Shown here one piece after another: positions 620-12,904 of a stretch of DNA of 14,266 nucleotides. Source of the DNA: a virus. Lineage: Duplodnaviria; Heunggongvirae; Uroviricota; Caudoviricetes. The position numbers and the translations under genes were made by a program. How positions within the stretch are numbered: the stretch's first letter is position 1; each line of letters opens with the position of its first letter. The stretch is from IMG/VR virus record IMGVR_UViG_2703718840_000012; one strand, 5' to 3'. The notes beneath the pieces are model-generated. The model made no database searches. It had not been told where the DNA came from and saw only the letters and a list, made by a program, of their open reading frames with translations.

Positions 620-891
620 GTATTCGTATTGAAATTGGCGAACGTTATGTCGTTACCAGTGACAGCTTTCAGTTTATTCTCCACGAGAAAAAGAGAGCGG
701 AAAGCGGTAAAAACGCCGGTCAGGAATGGCTGTCGGTGGTTGGTTATTACCCGAAATTAAGCCAGCTCGTTTCCGGCCTGATGCATCACGATATTCTGAC
801 CGGAAGCGCAAAGTCTTTTGCTGATTTAAACGTGCAGGTTGAGCAACTCAGCAAGCGTTGTTCAGAGGCTTTTGGCTCATATGGCCGTTAA
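616..891 (+). CDS. hypothetical phage early-operon protein
   Basis: ATG at 616 with GGAGA at 604-608; the 3' end overlaps the gpA start at 881. Compact, overlapping organisation typical of a phage operon. Confidence 0.6.
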   Translation: MSIRIEIGERYVVTSDSFQFILHEKKRAESGKNAGQEWLSVVGYYPKLSQLVSGLMHHDILTGSAKSFADLNVQVEQLSKRCSEAFGSYGR

Positions 892-3157
892 AGCCTCCGG
901 GCGTTTTGTCCCTCCGTCAGCATTTGCCGCAGGCACCGGTAAGGCGTTTACCGGTGCTTATGCATGGAACGCGCCACGCGAGGCTGTCGGGCGCGAAAGA
1001 CCCCTTACACGTGACGAGATGCGTCAGGTGCAAGGTGTTTTATCCACGATTAACCGCCTGCCTTACTTTTTGCGCTCGCTGTTTACGTCACGCTATGACT
1101 ACATCCGGCGCAATAAAAGCCCGGTGCACGGGTTTTATTTTCTCACATCCACTTTTCAGCGTCGTTTATGGCCGCGCATTGAGCGTGTGAATCAGCGCCA
1201 TGAAATGAACACCGACGCGTCGTTGCTGTTTCTGGCAGAGCGTGACCATTATGCGCGTCTGCCGGGGATGAATGACAAGGAGCTGAAAAAGTTTGCCGCC
1301 CGTATCTCATCGCAGCTTTTCATGATGTATGAGGAACTCTGCGATGCCTGGGTGGATGCGCATGGCGAAAAAGAATCGCTGTTTACGGATGAGGCGCAGG
1401 CTCACCTCTATGGTCATGTTGCTGGTGCTGCACGTGCTTTCAATATTTCCCCGCTCTACTGGAAAAAATACCGTAAAGGGCAGATGACCAAGAGGCAGGC
1501 ATATTCTGCCATTGCCCGTCTGTTTAACGATGAGTGGTGGACCCATCAGCTTAAAGGCCAGCGTATGCGCTGGCATGAGGCGTTACTGATTGCTGTCGGG
1601 GAGGTCAATAAAGACCGTTCTCCTTATGCCAGTAAACATGCCATTCGTGATGTGCGTGCACGCCGCCAGGCAAATCTGGAATTTCTTAAATCGTGTGATC
1701 TCGAAAACAGGGAAACCGGCGAGCGCATCGACCTTATCAGTAAGGTGATGGGCAGTATTTCTAATCCTGAAATTCGCCGGATGGAGCTGATGAACACCAT
1801 TGCCGGTATTGAGCGTTACGCCGCAGCAGAGGGTGATGTGGGGATGTTTATCACGCTGACCGCGCCGTCAAAGTATCACCCGACACGTCAGGTCAGAAAA
1901 GGCGAAAGTAAAACCGTCCAGCTAAATCACGGCTGGAACGATGAGGCATTTAATCCAAAGGATGCGCAGCGTTATCTCTGCCGTATCTGGAGCCTGATGC
2001 GCACGGCATTCAAGGATAATGATTTACAGGTCTACGGTTTGCGTGTCGTCGAGCCACACCACGACGGAACGCCGCACTGGCATATGATGCTTTTTTGTAA
2101 TCCGCGCCAGCGTAACCAGATTATCGAAATCATGCGTCGCTATGCGCTCAAAGAGGATGGCGATGAAAGAGGAGCCGCGCGAAACCGTTTTCAGGCAAAA
2201 CACCTTAACCGGGGCGGTGCTGCGGGGTATATCGCGAAATACATCTCAAAAAACATCGACGGCTATGCACTGGATGGTCAGCTCGATAACGATACCGGCA
2301 GGCCGCTGAAAGACACTGCTGCGGCTGTTACCGCATGGGCGTCAACGTGGCGCATCCCGCAATTTAAAACGGTTGGTCTGCCAACAATGGGGGCTTACCG
2401 TGAACTACGCAAATTGCCGCGCGGCGTCAGCATTGCTGATGAGTTTGACGAGCGCGTCGAGGCTGCACGCGCCGCCGCAGACAGTGGTGATTTTGCGTTG
2501 TATATCAGCGCGCAGGGTGGGGCAAATGTCCCGCGCGATTGTCAGACTGTCAGAGTCGCCCGTAGCCCGTCGGATGACGTTAACGAGTACGAGGAAGAGG
2601 TCGAGAGGGTGGTCGGCATTTACGCGCCGCATCTCGGCGCGCGTCATATTCATATCACCAGAACGACGGACTGGCGCATTGTGCCGAAAGTTCCGGTCGT
2701 TGAGCCTTTGACTTTAAAAAGCGGCATCGCCGCGCCTCGGAGTCCTGTCAATAACTGTGGAAAGCTCACCGGTGGTGATACTTCGTTACCGGCTCCCACA
2801 CCTTCTGAGCACGCCGCAGCAGTGCTTAATCTGGTAGATGACGGTGTTATCGAATGGAATGACCAGGAGGTCGTGAGGGCGCTCAGAGGTGCATTAAAAC
2901 ACGGTCTGAGAAGACCAAACCGTCAGCAAAGAAACGGAAGCCCGTTAAAACCGCATGAAATAGCGCCATCGGCCAGACTGACCCGGTCGGAACGAATGCA
3001 AATTACCCGTATCCGCGTTGACCTTGCTCAGAACGGTATCAGGCCACAGCGATGGGAGCTTGAGGCGCTGGCGCGTGGCGCGACCGTAAATTATGACGGG
3101 GAAAAATTCACGTATCCGGTCGCTGATGAGTGGCCGGGATTCTCAACAAACATATAA
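881..3157 (+). CDS. A: P2-type replication initiation endonuclease gpA (rolling-circle initiator)
   Basis: ORF-track 839..3157 starts at a TTG; the ATG at 881 gives MAVKASGRFVPPSAFAAGTGK..., which I recognise as the P2 gpA N-terminus. Length (~758 aa) fits gpA and it contains the HWHMMLF block. Recognition is from memory, not a search. Confidence 0.9.
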   Translation: MAVKASGRFVPPSAFAAGTGKAFTGAYAWNAPREAVGRERPLTRDEMRQVQGVLSTINRLPYFLRSLFTSRYDYIRRNKSPVHGFYFLTSTFQRRLWPRIERVNQRHEMNTDASLLFLAERDHYARLPGMNDKELKKFAARISSQLFMMYEELCDAWVDAHGEKESLFTDEAQAHLYGHVAGAARAFNISPLYWKKYRKGQMTKRQAYSAIARLFNDEWWTHQLKGQRMRWHEALLIAVGEVNKDRSPYASKHAIRDVRARRQANLEFLKSCDLENRETGERIDLISKVMGSISNPEIRRMELMNTIAGIERYAAAEGDVGMFITLTAPSKYHPTRQVRKGESKTVQLNHGWNDEAFNPKDAQRYLCRIWSLMRTAFKDNDLQVYGLRVVEPHHDGTPHWHMMLFCNPRQRNQIIEIMRRYALKEDGDERGAARNRFQAKHLNRGGAAGYIAKYISKNIDGYALDGQLDNDTGRPLKDTAAAVTAWASTWRIPQFKTVGLPTMGAYRELRKLPRGVSIADEFDERVEAARAAADSGDFALYISAQGGANVPRDCQTVRVARSPSDDVNEYEEEVERVVGIYAPHLGARHIHITRTTDWRIVPKVPVVEPLTLKSGIAAPRSPVNNCGKLTGGDTSLPAPTPSEHAAAVLNLVDDGVIEWNDQEVVRALRGALKHGLRRPNRQQRNGSPLKPHEIAPSARLTRSERMQITRIRVDLAQNGIRPQRWELEALARGATVNYDGEKFTYPVADEWPGFSTNI

Positions 3158-3644: not shown

Positions 3645-5189
3645 TTAAGCGCTGTGTTCCTTGTCGAATAAGTTCACTTCTTCTGGTGTAATATCATTAT
3701 CCATTTCTTCGAATGCATCTAAATCCACAATTTTTGTTTTTTTCAAAATTGATAGTATTTTCTGTTTGTTTTTACTTTTGGCTGAACCCGGAATCCACTC
3801 TACATCCCACAGGCCATCAATGGTAAATGTTTTTTTTCCCTTGAGTTCATCATTTATGCGTTGACATAGGGCTGTTTTGTAATCGCCTTCCCATTGTGTG
3901 TGTATCTTCCCTTGAACTCGTTGAAACCAAATATCTAACATTTCAGTATTTGGTTGTTTACCTAGTTTACAATGAAGTTGTTGTAACTTGCCAAATTTGA
4001 GTTCATCGTCGTCATAAAGGAAGGTCAAGAGTTTTGCGAAAATAGCCATTCCCACTGGGTAGGTGGTTGGGTTTTTAGCCATGATGCTTGAAATAATTCC
4101 AAGCATTGCATCTAGTTGATGCCCACTATTTGTGATCTTTTTCTTCCTAAATAATTTTCGCAAGAAATCATTTAAATATCTAACTGTAATTTTGGAGTTT
4201 TGATGTTTTAAAGAAAATAAATATATTGCATACAACATTTTCTGTAGGGAGTTGAACGACTTTTCTATAATATATTCTTTTTTTGCTGATTTAAGGGAGT
4301 GAAGAATGATGTCGTCATGTAGTTCTGTTTTTCTTGAGTTTAAATCAAGCCCAAACTCACCTAAGACCTCAACCAAACACTTTGAGATTTTGTCCAAATC
4401 ATCTTTACTGCTTGAAAATATTCGATAATCATCTCTGTAGCGAACTACTTTGTAATCCGTTATTTTTTGCTCTTCAGTTTTTTTTCTTAGCTGTAAATCA
4501 ATTTCGCCTAAAATTAATTCGGCAAATGTATCCATCAACGTACTACCCAATGGTATTCCGTTTGTCTGATTACTCATCATCATCTGGATATGAGTGTCAA
4601 TCAATCGTCCTGGGTTATTGTTATTTTCTTTCTTTTTGGCCTCTTCTTTTGAGATGAATACCCATTCAAAGCTATGAGTGTAAATAGAAGGGTAGAAGTT
4701 TGAAATATCTGTGCTGAACATGAACTCATACTCAAGAGCCAATGAAAGACTTTTTTGTTCAAAATCTTCCCACCAGTTTAAAACAGATGCAGCTACGTTT
4801 GAGGTGTTCTTTTTGCTCACTGGGGTACTTGAGCATAAAAAAAGATCATTAGACTCAAACTCTCTAAATTTATTCTTTATAGCCTTCCAGTTGGAAGGGG
4901 ATGTAATAAGTTTACAAAAATACACGTAGTATAGAGGATTAATTAGTGTTATTCGTCGCCAGCTATATAAGCCATCTTTGCTGACTAAAACCTCGTAATT
5001 TATATTCTTCCCCATCAATGACTTGGAGTCAGGTTGGAAGTTGATTTTACCTTCATCTATCGCGGAGTTGATTTCTTCAAGCAAGGAAGAAAAATCGACA
5101 TAACTGGGTAGCTCCAGAGTAGTGTATGAATCATGCTGCAGAAAATACTTAAGCGCTCTACCAGTAGTTAATTCATAAATCTTTTTCAT
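3645..5189 (-). CDS. reverse transcriptase, Abi/UG-like single-gene type with ~220-aa C-terminal extension
   Basis: Translation shows RT motifs in order: SWRRITLINP (motif 2), FSTDISNFYPSI (motif A, catalytic D), NGIPLGSTLMDTFAELIL (motif B), VVRYRDDYRIF (YxDD motif C), GLDLNSRKT (motif D/E). ATG at 5189 (MKKIYELT...) is preferred; the ORF-track start at 5315 is a TTG and the extension reads as Cys/His-rich junk running into the cos flank. Same position and orientation as old in P2. Confidence 0.8.
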   Translation of the reverse strand: MKKIYELTTGRALKYFLQHDSYTTLELPSYVDFSSLLEEINSAIDEGKINFQPDSKSLMGKNINYEVLVSKDGLYSWRRITLINPLYYVYFCKLITSPSNWKAIKNKFREFESNDLFLCSSTPVSKKNTSNVAASVLNWWEDFEQKSLSLALEYEFMFSTDISNFYPSIYTHSFEWVFISKEEAKKKENNNNPGRLIDTHIQMMMSNQTNGIPLGSTLMDTFAELILGEIDLQLRKKTEEQKITDYKVVRYRDDYRIFSSSKDDLDKISKCLVEVLGEFGLDLNSRKTELHDDIILHSLKSAKKEYIIEKSFNSLQKMLYAIYLFSLKHQNSKITVRYLNDFLRKLFRKKKITNSGHQLDAMLGIISSIMAKNPTTYPVGMAIFAKLLTFLYDDDELKFGKLQQLHCKLGKQPNTEMLDIWFQRVQGKIHTQWEGDYKTALCQRINDELKGKKTFTIDGLWDVEWIPGSAKSKNKQKILSILKKTKIVDLDAFEEMDNDITPEEVNLFDKEHSA

Positions 5190-5395
5190 AATTAGTGATT
5201 TCTTCTTAAGTTGCGCACAAATAACTACCTGTTTTCTATCATGATAACGATGCGAATGCGAGCAATTCAGGAAGTGCATTACTCTGCATCGAAGCGCACG
5301 CAAGTCAGAGAACAATAACTGCCTGGCGACATCAGGACTGGCGCGCTAGTTGAGTGGTCATGCAACTGCATTAAAACCGCCCCATGAAGCGGGCG

Positions 5396-5414
5396 GGCGA
5401 GGCGGGGAAAGCAC
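5396..5414. other. P2-type cos site (19-nt cohesive-end sequence GGCGAGGCGGGGAAAGCAC)
   Basis: Exact 19-nt string ggcgaggcggggaaagcac inside a GC-rich island between the two AT-rich RT genes. It matches the P2/186 cohesive-end sequence as I recall it, and sits where cos is expected, between the old-slot gene and Q. Confidence 0.65.
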
Positions 5415-5452
5415 TGCGCGCTAAACGATGTCGCTGGCTTGCAGTTACCCGG

Positions 5453-5481
5453 TTGAAATTCTTATTTTTTTGTTGCATTAT
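5453..5481 (+). promoter_or_regulatory. candidate sigma70 promoter for the RT2 leader/operon (TTGAAA-17 nt-CATTAT)
   Basis: -35 ttgaaa at 5453-5458, 17-nt spacer, -10 cattat at 5476-5481, immediately right of cos and about 250 nt upstream of the RT2 start. Sequence-only call. Confidence 0.25.
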
Positions 5482-5527
5482 TCTTAGCGCACCAGCGATT
5501 CGCTTGGTATGCGGCAGTCAACAACAT

Positions 5528-5722
5528 TAAATTGTCAGTTTTTGCTTTTACAAAAAAGCGTCCACTATGGACCTATCAGCGAGGCCCCACCGTCGTCAAC
5601 TACGATGGTGCCGTAGCCGACGACATTACGTACGGTCGAAAGATAGCAGAGGCTGTTGCTGACAATTGTTGATGTAAGCATCTCTGCTGTTCCACCCTTG
5701 AGTATGGGAAGACCGTACGTAA
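5528..5722 (+). ncRNA. candidate structured leader / retron-like ncRNA (msr-msd-like) upstream of RT2
   Basis: Nested and crossing inverted repeats: 9-bp aattgtcag (5530-5538) vs ctgacaatt (5659-5667), extendable to ~14 bp with a bulge; a two-tier hairpin at 5591-5622; a perfect 12-bp repeat ttacgtacggtc (5626-5637) vs gaccgtacgtaa (5711-5722) ending 18 nt before the RT2 ATG. Architecture is ncRNA -> RT -> effector as in retrons. Boundaries are approximate. Confidence 0.3.
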
Positions 5723-5739
5723 CTTTGAATTTGAATGGT

Positions 5740-6930
5740 ATGTTTATGGATAAATTTAAACCATACAGCAAATCCAATGCTCCTATCACAACACTTGAAA
5801 AGTTGTCAAAGGCTTTATCGATTTCTGTTGAAGAGCTTAAAGCTATTGCAGAATTACCATTAGATGAGAAATATACTCTAAAAGAAATTCCCAAAATTGA
5901 CGGAAGCAAACGGATTGTCTACTCCCTGCATCCTAAAATGAGATTATTACAGAGTAGAATTAATAAACGTATCTTTAAGGAATTGGTTGTTTTTCCTTCA
6001 TTTTTGTTTGGTTCAGTTCCCAGTAAAAATGATGTTTTAAATTCTAATGTCAAACGTGACTATGTTTCATGTGCAAAGGCTCATTGTGGAGCAAAAACAG
6101 TTCTCAAGGTGGATATAAGTAATTTTTTCGATAATATCCATAGAGATCTGGTTAGGAGCGTGTTTGAGGAGATATTGCATATTAAGGATGAGGCTCTTGA
6201 ATACTTGGTGGAAATATGTACTAAGGATGATTTTGTCGTACAGGGGGCCTTAACATCAAGCTATATAGCAACTTTGTGTTTATTCGCTGTTGAAGGGGAT
6301 GTGGTAAGACGTGCGCAGAGGAAAGGACTTGTTTATACGCGTTTGGTAGATGATATTACCGTGTCATCTAAAATAAGTAATTATGATTTTTCTCAAATGC
6401 AAAGCCATATAGAGAGGATGCTTTCTGAGCATGACTTGCCGATAAATAAGCGCAAAACTAAAATATTTCACTGTTCATCTGAACCTATAAAAGTACATGG
6501 TTTAAGAGTTGACTATGACTCACCTCGACTACCATCCGATGAAGTCAAAAGAATCAGGGCATCTATACATAATTTGAAATTACTGGCGGCAAAAAATAAC
6601 ACAAAAACAAGTGTTGCATACAGAAAAGAATTCAATAGATGTATGGGGAGAGTGAATAAGCTTGGCCGTGTTGCGCATGAAAAATATGAATCATTCAAGA
6701 AACAGTTGCAGGCAATAAAACCGATGCCATCTAAAAGAGATGTTGCTGTGATTGATGCAGCTATAAAAAGTTTAGAGTTGTCGTATTCGAAAGGTAATCA
6801 AAATAAACATTGGTATAAAAGAAAATATGATTTGACGAGATATAAGATGATTATTCTTACTCGCTCTGAATCATTTAAAGAAAAACTGGAGTGTTTTAAA
6901 TCTAGATTGGCATCTTTAAAACCATTATGA
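5740..6930 (+). CDS. retron-type reverse transcriptase (divergent catalytic motifs)
   Basis: Translation shows YTLKEIPKIDGSKRIVYSLHP (motifs 1-2), HCGAKTVLKVDISNFFDNI (motif A), VVQGALTSSYIATL (motif B), YTRLVDDI (motif C, both Asp present), INKRKTKI, then VHGLRVDY...VKRIRASIHNL, resembling the retron RT VTG/thumb region. Start is ambiguous among ATG 5704, 5740 and 5746, none with a strong SD; the ORF-track start 5656 is a TTG. Confidence 0.85.
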   Translation: MFMDKFKPYSKSNAPITTLEKLSKALSISVEELKAIAELPLDEKYTLKEIPKIDGSKRIVYSLHPKMRLLQSRINKRIFKELVVFPSFLFGSVPSKNDVLNSNVKRDYVSCAKAHCGAKTVLKVDISNFFDNIHRDLVRSVFEEILHIKDEALEYLVEICTKDDFVVQGALTSSYIATLCLFAVEGDVVRRAQRKGLVYTRLVDDITVSSKISNYDFSQMQSHIERMLSEHDLPINKRKTKIFHCSSEPIKVHGLRVDYDSPRLPSDEVKRIRASIHNLKLLAAKNNTKTSVAYRKEFNRCMGRVNKLGRVAHEKYESFKKQLQAIKPMPSKRDVAVIDAAIKSLELSYSKGNQNKHWYKRKYDLTRYKMIILTRSESFKEKLECFKSRLASLKPL

Positions 6931-7634
6931 ATGCAAATATTAGACTTCTCAAATATATTGTCGGTGTGTCGTCAGCTCTTTTTTTGATTTTTTCGCTAAT
7001 TTCTCTTTTTGAAACTATTCAGAATGAAAAGCTATATGAGCGTGATATATGCTTCGATAGCCAGTGCTTAAAATTTTTTGCGGAAAAAACATCTGGTATA
7101 GTAATGTATTTTCAGGCGTTTGGATGGCTTATAACAACTTTTGTTACCGTTTTTGGTGTTATGATTGCTTTGATGACATATAACGCTGGAGTTAAAAATA
7201 ATAATAATAGTAATTACACTAGTCATCTGACGATGTTTAGAGAATTTGCAAGTGCTGAGTTAACTAAAAGAAGTAGCATCTATCCAGAGAAAGTTAATTT
7301 TTTTAGATGGTATAGGGTTATGTTCCCTGAAGCGCAAGGCGGTGATATATCTGTTTCGAGAGATTATCTAGAAATAATATCTAGAATCAAATGTGTTATT
7401 GAGGAAGCCAATGCACATATTACAGAGGAAAATAAAGACTATAAATATAAAACTCATCAGAGAAAAATGATGGCTGTTTTGGATGAAATCGGTATATCGA
7501 TTAGTAATGGGCCCAAAAATATTTTTATTGAGGTTGAGAGTCAAATTTTGGATTATATCGATACTATTAATTTGTCATTTTGTCACTCCTCATCAGTGAT
7601 AGAATTAAGTAGAGTAAAAAGGAAGTATATATAG
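6927..7634 (+). CDS. two-transmembrane-helix membrane protein with ~150-aa soluble C-terminal domain; candidate effector of the RT2 module
   Basis: ATG overlaps the RT2 stop (ATGA at 6927-6930), indicating translational coupling. Two hydrophobic stretches (YIVGVSSALFLIFSLISLF and IVMYFQAFGWLITTFVTVFGVMIALMTY) near the N-terminus; same AT-rich composition as RT2. Confidence 0.8.
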   Translation: MNANIRLLKYIVGVSSALFLIFSLISLFETIQNEKLYERDICFDSQCLKFFAEKTSGIVMYFQAFGWLITTFVTVFGVMIALMTYNAGVKNNNNSNYTSHLTMFREFASAELTKRSSIYPEKVNFFRWYRVMFPEAQGGDISVSRDYLEIISRIKCVIEEANAHITEENKDYKYKTHQRKMMAVLDEIGISISNGPKNIFIEVESQILDYIDTINLSFCHSSSVIELSRVKRKYI

Positions 7635-7676: not shown

Positions 7677-8696
7677 TTATAAGTTATAATCAAGGAATTT
7701 TATGACTTCCATATCTAACCATTCATTTATTGACTTTATTCTCTCCTGTAATGGAATGAGTTCATTGCGGACAAAGACCTTTGCCACTTTTTCAATATCT
7801 CCTAGTGACCCGACATTCTCCGGCTTACCGCCCATCAACTGAAAGGGGATGCGGTGTGCGTCCAGGAGATCTGCGGCGCTGACTTTTTTGATATTAAAAA
7901 AATCGTCCTTCGTCGCCACTTCACTGAGGGGGATAATTTTAATGCCGTCGGCTTTCCCCTGTGGGGCATAGAGAAACAGGTTTTTAAAGTTGTTGCGGCC
8001 TTTTGACTTAACCATGTTTTCGCGAAGCATTTCGATATCGTTGCGGTCCTGCACGGCATCGGTGACGTACATGATGTATCCGGCATGAGCGCCGTTTTCG
8101 TAATACTTGCGGCGGAACAGCGTGGCCGACTCATTCAGCCAGGCAGAGTTAAGGGCGCTGAGATATTCCGGCAGGCCGTACAGCTCCTGATTAATATCAG
8201 GCTCCAGCAGGTGAAACACGGAGCCGGGCGCGAAGGCTGTCGGCTCGTTGAAGGACGGCACCCACCAGTAAACATCCTCCTCCACGCCACGACGGGTATA
8301 TTTGGCCGGTGAGGTTTCCAGTCTGATGACCTTACCGGTGGTGCTGTAACGCTTTTCCAGAAACGCATTACCGAACACCAGAAAATCCAGCACAAAGCGG
8401 CTGAAATCCTGCTGGGACAGCCACGGGTGCGGGATAAACGTTGAAGCCAGAATATTGCGTTTAACGTAAATCGGTGAGCTGTGATGCACGGCAGCACGCA
8501 GGCTTTTTGCCAGACCGGTAAAGCTGACCGGTGGCTCATACCATCTGCCGTTACTGATGCACTCGACGTAATCCAGAATATCACGGCGGTCGAGTACCGG
8601 CACCGGCTCACCAAAGGTGAATGCCTCCATTTTCGGGGCGCTGGCAGTCATTGTTTTCACCGCTGGCTGCGGTGTTTTCCCTTTTTTCTTACTCAT
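7677..8696 (-). CDS. Q: P2-type capsid portal protein gpQ
   Basis: 339-aa ORF (P2 gpQ is similar in size), GGAG RBS 9 nt upstream, ATG overlapping the stop of the upstream terminase ORF (ATGA at 8693-8696), cos-proximal and on the leftward strand as in P2. Confidence 0.88.
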   Translation of the reverse strand: MSKKKGKTPQPAVKTMTASAPKMEAFTFGEPVPVLDRRDILDYVECISNGRWYEPPVSFTGLAKSLRAAVHHSSPIYVKRNILASTFIPHPWLSQQDFSRFVLDFLVFGNAFLEKRYSTTGKVIRLETSPAKYTRRGVEEDVYWWVPSFNEPTAFAPGSVFHLLEPDINQELYGLPEYLSALNSAWLNESATLFRRKYYENGAHAGYIMYVTDAVQDRNDIEMLRENMVKSKGRNNFKNLFLYAPQGKADGIKIIPLSEVATKDDFFNIKKVSAADLLDAHRIPFQLMGGKPENVGSLGDIEKVAKVFVRNELIPLQERIKSINEWLDMEVIKFLDYNL

Positions 8697-9607
8697 CAGT
8701 AAAACTCCAGAATGGTGGATGTCAGCGGGGTGCTGATACCGGCGGTGAGTGGCTCATTTAACAGGGCGTGCATGGTCGCCCAGGCGAGATCGGCGTGGCT
8801 GGCTTCCTCGCTGCGGCTGGCCTCATAGGTGGCGCTGCGTCCGCTGCTGGTCATGGTCTTGCGGATAGCCATAAACGAGCTGGTGATGTCGGTGGCGCTG
8901 ACGTCATATTCCAGACAGCCACGGCGGATAACGTCTTTTGCCTTGAGCACCATTGCGGTTTTCATTTCCGGCGTGTAGCGGATATCGCGCGCGGCGGGAT
9001 AGAACGAGCGCACGAGCTGGAACACGCCGACACCGAGGCCGGTGGCATCAATCCCGATGTATTCAACGTTATATTTTTCGGTGAGTTTGCGGATGGATTC
9101 CGCCTGGGTGGCAAAGTCCATGCCTTTCCACTGGTGACGCTCAAGTATTCTGAATTTGCCACCGGCCACCACCGGCGGTGCCAGTACCACGCATCCGGCG
9201 CTGTCGCCACGGTGTGACGGGTCGTAACCAATCCATACCGGGCGGGAGCCGAACGGATTTGCGGCAAACGGCGCATAGTCTTCCCATTCTTCCAGCGTGT
9301 CGACCATGCAACGTTGCAGCTCCTCGAACGGGAACACCGACGCCTTGTCGTCAACAAATTCACACATGAACAGGTTTTTAAAATCGTCGGCGCTGTTTTC
9401 ACGTTTGAGCTGCTCAATGTCGAACAGTGTGCAGCCACCTTTCAGGGCGTCCTCAATGGTGACAATCTGCCGCCACTGGCCGTCCGCACAGAGAAGCCCA
9501 CCGGCAAGGGCGTTATGACTGACGTCGATTTCCACGCGTTCGGCGGCGCTGGCGCGTCCCCGGTTGAACAGTTCACCCGACCAGAACGGGTACCCTGGAT
9601 AATCCGG
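8696..9607 (-). pseudogene. P: terminase ATPase/nuclease subunit gpP, C-terminal ~300 aa only (5' half deleted)
   Basis: Reading frame is continuous with the Q overlap and is open upstream of the GTG at 9535 back to a TAA at 9608-9610, with no plausible start or N-terminal ATPase region. About 300 aa are present against the ~590 expected for gpP. Confidence 0.8.
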
Positions 9608-12733: not shown

Positions 12734-12760
12734 AAAAAATAAGCCCGTGTAAGGGAGATT
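12734..12760. other. P2 attachment-site core (attR), 27 bp AAAAAATAAGCCCGTGTAAGGGAGATT
   Basis: Exact 27-nt string at 12734-12760, about 100 nt after ogr and 145 nt before host yegQ, matching the P2 att core as I recall it. The phage-host junction is therefore here. Confidence 0.65.
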
Positions 12761-12904
12761 ACACAGGCTAAGGAGGTGGTTCCTGGTACAGCTAGCATTT
12801 TATGGGTTATGTTTTTCAGCGAAACGGATGATAACCTTAATAAATGCAGCTGTATGTGATCGGTTTCTAAGAATTTTCCATCCGGGAAAAATAATCGAAA
12901 TTAA

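Follow-up and report, generated by a model that had tools for sequence, protein, structure and literature searches.

In textbook retrons such as Ec86, the noncoding RNA (ncRNA) consists of msr hairpins followed by an msd stem-loop and is closed by a long-range duplex, a1/a2, that ends in two opposed G residues. Retron-Eco6 (Ec48), a type IV retron, is a phage-defense system that is already known and has been studied experimentally, and both its ncRNA and the DNA reverse transcribed from it (RT-DNA) have been published (Palka 2022; Khan 2024). Here we describe a locus within a 14,266-nucleotide (nt) stretch of viral DNA, IMG/VR record IMGVR_UViG_2703718840_000012, the whole of which is referred to below as the window. 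The locus is Retron-Eco6 itself. What remains of interest in a system already known is a conserved 3′ domain and a pseudoknot that lie outside the published ncRNA boundaries, together with the geometry of priming. The domain and the pseudoknot came to light through two, (a) and (c), of three inverted repeats, here called (a), (b), and (c), that a first-pass annotation had noticed in the leader of the reverse transcriptase (RT) gene.

The repeats lie in the ncRNA gene and the RT leader of a retron that is already known, as the RT, the effector, and the ncRNA all match Retron-Eco6. The RT, which covers the full PADLOC model for its family, has VHG in place of VTG and a substitution of the Asn in NAXXH; variants of these motifs (VHG and NAXXH/CAKAH) have been reported as peculiar to RT-Eco6. 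Four features of a type IV retron are present: the RT family, a downstream gene for a two-transmembrane (2TM) effector that overlaps the RT stop codon, an msr-msd ncRNA that immediately precedes the RT gene in the same orientation, and an msd stem-loop. At 5467-5652, the window matches the Retron-Eco6 (Ec48) ncRNA that Khan et al. 2024 print in their supplement; the sole differences are three single-base indels, which we attribute to artifacts of text extraction. The published system and this one thus share the locus, the RT, the 2TM effector, and the RT-DNA start, and the complete 2.3-kb retron is found in 57 complete Escherichia coli genomes. A cmscan search of the whole window against Rfam (E ≤ 1) returned no retron family, with the small RNA (sRNA) CyaR as the single match. 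The first-pass annotation had considered the region compatible with an msr-msd-like ncRNA, and it is indeed the ncRNA of Retron-Eco6/Ec48.

A repeat search recovered all three repeat systems. Repeat (c) joins TTACGTACGGTC (5626-5637) to GACCGTACGTAA (5711-5722) over 12 nt and repeat (a) joins AATTGTCAG (5530-5538) to CTGACAATT (5659-5667) over 9 nt, both at 100% complementarity; repeat (b), first seen as a two-tier hairpin, corresponds to a 13-nt repeat of 85% complementarity (GTCGTCAACTACG, 5592-5604, and CGTAGCCGACGAC, 5612-5624). As their coordinates confirm, (a) and (c) cross, and crossing repeats do not fit the a1/a2 scheme, in line with the earlier remark that the spacings are unlike those of a textbook retron. 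In 2,000 dinucleotide-preserving shuffles of 5453-5746, a perfect inverted repeat of at least 12 nt arose once and one of at least 9 nt arose 233 times (about 12%). Repeat (c) by itself is therefore far beyond chance, as had been surmised for the 12-mer, whereas (a) alone is not and is rescued by comparative evidence only. The frequency of 9-mers like (a) is what could be said for regarding the repeats as chance matches in an AT-rich leader; the rarity of the 12-mer (1/2,000) and the strong covariation of both (a) and (c), described below, leave that idea a negligible probability, and the comparative data refute it.

For the comparative analysis, we used about 100 loci with relatives of the RT (40 to 100% identity) from genomes, metagenomes, and viral contigs and, for 36 distinct loci, aligned the 120 nt that precede the RT start. 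Repeat (c) is P1, the closing helix of a three-way junction, P1-P2-P3, that spans 5626-5722. RNAalifold detected compensatory changes in 20 of the 23 junction pairs, and 96.1% of the cells are paired, a share that falls to 35 to 50% after shifts of the 3′ partners by one to three columns. Covariation scores 0.80 (0.11 to 0.20 after such shifts), and no shuffle attains the observed values. A covariance model built from this alignment matched 88 of the 99 sequences searched, each of them once; every match is on the strand of the RT and stops shortly ahead of it. Among 63 distinct sequences, compensatory changes were present at 23/23 pairs. Repeat (c) is among the best-supported helices of the locus.

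The 5′ arm of P1 includes the 8 nucleotides that are copied first (5626-5633); the published cDNA start, C5633, lies within it, 4 bp below the junction. Another partner for 5626-5652 was sought in the 5′ end and the adjoining hairpin P0, the 5′ strand of the long-range pairing H (described below), the msr hairpins, the msd, P3, and the tail, and none was found; the only covarying partners of this segment are the downstream arms of P1 and P2. Two Pseudoalteromonas relatives, loci L003 (2815-2945) and L004, whose RTs are 44 to 45% identical, were missed by the covariance model. Their minimum free energy (MFE) folds contain P1- and P2-like helices with a different third arm and an ambiguous loop partner, and the P1-P2 architecture may extend further than the covariance model shows.

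Repeat (a) is H3, one helix of a long-range pairing, H, that is made up of three to four segments and covaries strongly. In 36/36 loci, RNAduplex found the P2 apical loop to be complementary to the segment after the first RNA hairpin, in an identical multipart pattern and with sequences that differ entirely between loci. In an alignment-free test of 19 nonredundant loci, the cognate H duplexes had a mean energy of −25.4 kcal/mol and the noncognate ones −13.1 kcal/mol, the cognate partner being the best in 17; for 22 loci defined by covariance-model matches, the means were −24.2 and −12.4 kcal/mol, and the cognate partner was the best in 19. Without preselection of the H site, the median rank of the cognate partner was 2 of 19. 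A structure-blind MAFFT alignment had 91% pairing in H1 and 98% in the main part of H2, with compensatory changes, and 75% in H3/H4 despite length variation. Covariation of the repeat arms in homologues, a check proposed with the first-pass annotation, is thus present for both (a) and (c). We also observed a conserved 4×4 internal loop between H1 and H2 (5513-5516/5674-5677) with invariant C5515, A5516, G5674, and A5676, which could be a protein-binding or bending motif.

The published ncRNA has its ends at 5467 and 5652, and the covarying 3′ partners of (a) and (c) lie beyond the latter, at 5652-5722. The resulting architecture resembles that of Ec86-type retrons in having a long-range helix (H) that closes the msr-msd, msr hairpins followed by an msd stem-loop, and invariant G residues (G5544 and G5651/5652) at the inner end of H. 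It differs in that H is interrupted and has a hairpin loop as its 3′ strand, which results in a pseudoknot, and in that the cDNA start is 18 nt from the inner end of H, inside P1.

Repeat (b) is the msd stem and forms the hairpin of the 48-nt multicopy single-stranded DNA (msDNA), msDNA-Ec48, since the published RT-DNA maps there and a 13-bp stem forms when the cDNA is folded. For Eco6, the RT-DNA that Khan 2024 lists from the data of Palka 2022 starts GTACGTAATGTCG... / GTACGTAATGTCGTCGGC, which is the complement of C5633 leftwards; with the msDNA length of 48 nt taken from the name of the retron, the template is 5586-5633. Palka 2022 reported that the RT-DNA agrees with the original description except for being three bases shorter at the 3′ end. 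When folded with DNA parameters, the cDNA has a 13-bp stem (5592-5604/5612-5624), a 7-nt loop, and short tails, and two A·C mismatches of the msd RNA become G·T in the cDNA. Of 23 loci, 18 have a cDNA strand whose stability exceeds that of the sense strand, which is only a weak trend.

The explanation that we favor, with a probability of roughly 55%, is that the real substrate of the RT is the Eco6 ncRNA plus a conserved 3′ extension of about 70 nt, with (a), (b), and (c) being helices of one pseudoknotted transcript. The extension would reach to about 20 nt before the RT start. By pairing the single-stranded 5′ part of the msr (5509-5545) with the P2 apical loop (5652-5681), H would close the msr-msd domain, which is the topological role of a1/a2 in textbook retrons, and the three-way junction would hold the region where reverse transcription starts. 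The 5′ arms of P1 and P2 comprise the start region and the published a2 segment, and their 3′ arms belong to the leader of the RT/effector mRNA. As no nucleotide is shared among H, P1, P2, and P3 and each of them covaries, coexistence in a single fold is the simplest interpretation. On this view, the RT starts cDNA synthesis inside P1, at C5633, and unwinds this helix; copying of 5633-5586 and subsequent removal of the template by RNase H would eliminate the P1 5′ arm and cut the transcript, after which H might still tie the msr-msDNA to the mRNA leader. Synthesis of msDNA would presumably require these helices. In the Khan 2024 census, a type IV retron that was given a short predicted ncRNA made no RT-DNA, which is what an extended ncRNA would predict.

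Several considerations weigh against this explanation. A need for the 3′ domain in msDNA synthesis or defense is argued from sequence comparison, and the transcript start at 5487-5489 (see below) is a prediction from the promoter. The full H together with P2 is sterically strained, with 5651/5652 and 5681/5682 joining opposite ends of H to the top of P2; H may bend at its conserved internal loops, or it may be that only H2/H3 coexist with P2. The G5487/G5634 register of the published a1/a2, which we take up below, fits the canonical rule suspiciously well. Finally, part of the structure may have been drawn before, in Mao et al. 1997 or in the Mestre 2020 or Palka 2022 figures; our literature search, to which those sources did not belong, found no description of a type IV 3′ domain or pseudoknot.

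A switch between two RNA states is an alternative hypothesis for the crossing helices. P1/P2 and H would then be alternatives that gate reverse transcription or translation of the RT/toxin, and in the P1/P2 state the start site and the a2 region would be sequestered while the H strand is displayed in the loop. The crossing itself, the steric difficulty of combining full H with P2 (reasoned from coordinates), and the burial of the cDNA start in P1 are consistent with such a switch, as is the example of the sister type VI retrons, whose structured hybrid RNA places toxin translation under the control of msDNA. However, the competing helices share no nucleotides, unlike those of classical switches, and the 5′ arms of P1/P2 have no alternative covarying partner. 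The Shine-Dalgarno (SD) region and the start codon are outside P1, no terminator-like site was found on the + strand in 5300-5800, and complementarity between the cDNA and the leader is not conserved, the cognate and noncognate duplex energies being equal. The hallmarks of attenuators and riboswitches (mutually exclusive helices with a shared strand, a terminator or a sequestered SD) are absent, and we consider a switch unlikely. Of the alternative conformations or template/primer arrangement that the first-pass annotation had raised, alternative conformations are possible but not favored, as there are no shared nucleotides and no alternative partner.

Homologues and RefSeq point to ATG 5746, and the start is probably at 5746, perhaps at 5740; the D216/D217 numbering of Millman et al. 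implies ATG 5704. The latter (5704-5706) is nearly invariant and lies within conserved P3, in its loop/stem. Relative to the RT, it is in frame 0 in 13 of the 36 loci, in frame 1 in 11, and in frame 2 in 12, and stops often follow; because it occurs in all three frames and is often followed by stops, it is a structural motif and not a start codon. An upstream open reading frame or N-terminal RT extension from ATG 5704 is ruled out by the absence of a conserved frame, and with it falls the earlier suggestion that copy 2 of the 12-mer is coding. Neither does copy 2 abut the start codon, as had been thought, since the distance from its end to the start codon is 17 nt for ATG 5740 and 23 nt for ATG 5746. 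The alternative that it occludes the RT start fares no better: in loci that have an SD-like sequence, this is situated downstream of P1 and ahead of the start codon, which places both SD and AUG outside P1.

The only promoter-like site in 5300-5800 is a predicted sigma-70 promoter (Table 1), and about 30 diverse homologous loci have the same −35/−10 layout equally far from P0. Because this layout recurs at a fixed distance from P0, transcription is predicted to start at about 5487-5489, just before P0. In the structure-blind MAFFT alignment, P0 has 97.9% of its cells paired and compensatory changes in 6 of 7 pairs, and folding identified equivalents of both msr hairpins in homologues, at corresponding positions. 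Type IV retron ncRNAs are thereby predicted to begin at a conserved GC just before P0, which falls within the a1 plus branching G of the Khan 2024 census.

The census ncRNA implies an a1 at about 5473-5483 and an a2 at about 5638-5649. The published layout could be complete as it stands, with this duplex priming from G5487 and the downstream arms serving the mRNA only, in stability, in RNase III-type processing, or as a standby site for RT translation. In this register G5487 (TTAG) faces G5634, which adjoins the observed start C5633, and a weaker promoter-like pair seen by eye (TTGCAG 5439-5444/TTATTT 5462-5467) could start a transcript near 5474. However, the duplex is weak (−5.8 kcal/mol) and is nearly absent in the closest relatives (−0.2 to −1.6 kcal/mol), though the a2 side there is nearly identical. 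Two tests for a1 × a2 covariation across the family found none, and cognate and noncognate energies are equal, so that the cognate pair has no advantage. Moreover, the published a1 overlaps the conserved predicted promoter, 5467-5486 looking like promoter, and the a2 side covaries with the downstream arms instead. The published a1/a2 is not supported by the comparative data, and the covarying helix H would do the closing instead; that the published layout is complete appears distinctly improbable.

The priming geometry appears not to fit the textbook scheme. Candidates for the branching G are G5487/5489, G5544, and G5715, each with problems. Two other pairings were tried as a1/a2 and rejected. 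One of them, UGCGGCA 5510-5516 with UGCCGUA 5609-5615, comes from the MFE fold; it predicts a cDNA start at 5607 and is mismatched in close relatives, and 5509-5512 belongs to H1. The other, P1 as a classical a1/a2 with a branch at G5638 and template from 5710, disagrees with the published RT-DNA, the complement of 5633 leftwards, and J12 is without a conserved G.

Elimination leads to a further hypothesis, namely, noncanonical priming from the P1 3′ arm, where G5715 faces C5633, or from a 3′-OH cleaved there, with the msDNA being joined to the RT mRNA leader. Partners were found only downstream and not upstream, and the top of P1, with the cDNA start 4 bp below the junction, is the sole duplex next to that start. 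The column of G5715 is G in only 12/36 loci, all characterized retrons have the msr 5′ of the msd, and the Eco6 RT-DNA of Palka 2022 matches the original description except for the three 3′-end bases. We regard downstream priming as a long shot.

Returning to the extended, pseudoknotted substrate that we favor, a more general proposition can be put forward for the family, tentatively and with the odds somewhat against it. Type IV retrons, including Ec48, may lack a classical a1/a2 and have as their functional ncRNA a pseudoknot about 235 nt long (5487-5722 in the window), which continues about 70 nt past the annotated 3′ end and into the RT mRNA leader. The RT would start in P1, whose only covarying partner is downstream, priming would be noncanonical, and the RT/toxin mRNA would have its leader remodeled with every round of msDNA synthesis. 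The absence of RT-DNA from clade 3 retrons that were given short predicted ncRNAs would thereby be explained as well.

Table 1. Features of the Retron-Eco6 locus and of its surroundings in the window
Feature	Position	Strand	Evidence or remark
Predicted sigma-70 promoter	5453-5481	+	TTGAAA 5453-5458, 17-nt spacer, CATTAT 5476-5481
P0, 5′-terminal ncRNA hairpin (CCAGCG-AUU-CGCUUGG)	5492-5507	+	Structure-blind MAFFT alignment
5′ strand of H, in msr	5509-5545	+	
H1	5509-5512/5678-5681	+	RNAduplex, alignment
H2	5517-5523/5667-5673	+	RNAduplex, alignment
H3 (repeat [a])	5531-5539/5658-5666	+	RNAduplex, alignment
H4	5544-5545/5652-5653	+	RNAduplex, alignment
msr hairpin GCUUUU-ACAA-AAAAGC	5544-5559	+	Fold
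msr hairpin GUCCA-CUA-UGGAC	5560-5572	+	Fold
msd, template of msDNA-Ec48	5586-5633	+	Published RT-DNA start and 48-nt length
P1 5′ arm, 12-mer copy 1	5626-5637	+	Alignment, covariation
P2 5′ arm	5642-5651	+	Alignment, covariation
P2 apical loop, 30 nt, 3′ strand of H	5652-5681	+	Begins at published ncRNA 3′ end (5652), rest beyond
P2 3′ arm	5682-5691	+	Alignment, covariation
P3, small hairpin, nearly invariant sequence CCCUUGAGUAUGGG	5695-5708 (5695-5697/5706-5708)	+	Alignment; contains ATG 5704
P1 3′ arm, 12-mer copy 2	5711-5722	+	Noncoding leader, 17-23 nt upstream of RT start
Retron type IV reverse transcriptase	5740-6930 (start 5746 or 5740)	+	PADLOC RT_IV 1.9e-176, full model covered
Two-transmembrane effector of retron Ec48	6927-7634	+	NCBIfam retron_Ec48_2TM 226.7 bits (cutoff 65); PADLOC 2TM_IV 4e-85
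Replication gene A	839-3157		P2-like prophage
AbiP2-family RT	3645-5315	minus	PADLOC 4e-160
CyaR sRNA	12737-12822	minus	Rfam RF00112, 100.7 bits; adjoins prophage end

As a whole, the window represents a P2-like E. coli prophage in a degraded state. Besides replication gene A, it holds portal and terminase remnants and a homologue of tail gene D; degradation is apparent at 7677-9535, where the portal open reading frame has just 339 amino acids and the terminase is represented by its C-terminal part only. Two divergent RTs occupy the interval between gene A and the portal remnant, the AbiP2 RT on the minus strand and the type IV retron RT on the plus strand. The AbiP2 RT is a second defense RT, unrelated to the retron RT. 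In phage P2, the slot between gene A and the portal holds tin/old. An identical retron resides in a P2-like prophage of NZ_CP090611.1 (locus L008), in which the terminase gene is intact, the portal is frameshifted, and an IS5 element lies between gene A and AbiP2. We also detected a short element at 5338-5422 that matches more than 2,000 complete E. coli genomes at 90 to 98% identity. On the minus strand it has a hairpin (5396-5377) and then a T-run, as terminators do, so that either a terminator for AbiP2 or a repeat of dispersed type may be present here.

Among RNAs of other defense RTs, the hybrid RNA (hyRNA) of type VI retrons, exemplified by Retron-Vpa2 of the same RT clade 3, likewise has its msr-msd embedded in a transcript that is longer and structured; additional arms separate the msd from a closing inverted repeat, and a covariance model supports the structure. 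The type IV domain differs in being without a conserved small open reading frame and without conserved msDNA-leader complementarity; neither the small toxic open reading frame nor the msDNA-complementary riboregulator loop by which type VI hyRNAs are recognized is found here. In further contrast to type VI, Eco6 is known from the literature to produce msDNA abundantly and constitutively. DRT2 is likewise a defense RT with an adjacent pseudoknotted template RNA; it belongs to a different RT lineage and makes a different product (rolling-circle repeat cDNA), and the likeness is one of description only.

Ec48 is the model retron for "guarding" RecBCD and also serves as a genome-editing scaffold. 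Should the substrate of the RT include the conserved 3′ domain and H, the ncRNA boundaries adopted in engineering and in large retron surveys would be too short for this clade, which would affect RT-DNA yields, editor design, and ncRNA prediction. Such a substrate would also provide a mechanistic link between type IV retrons and the recently described hybrid RNA of type VI and would reopen the question of how priming is set up without an a1/a2 duplex.

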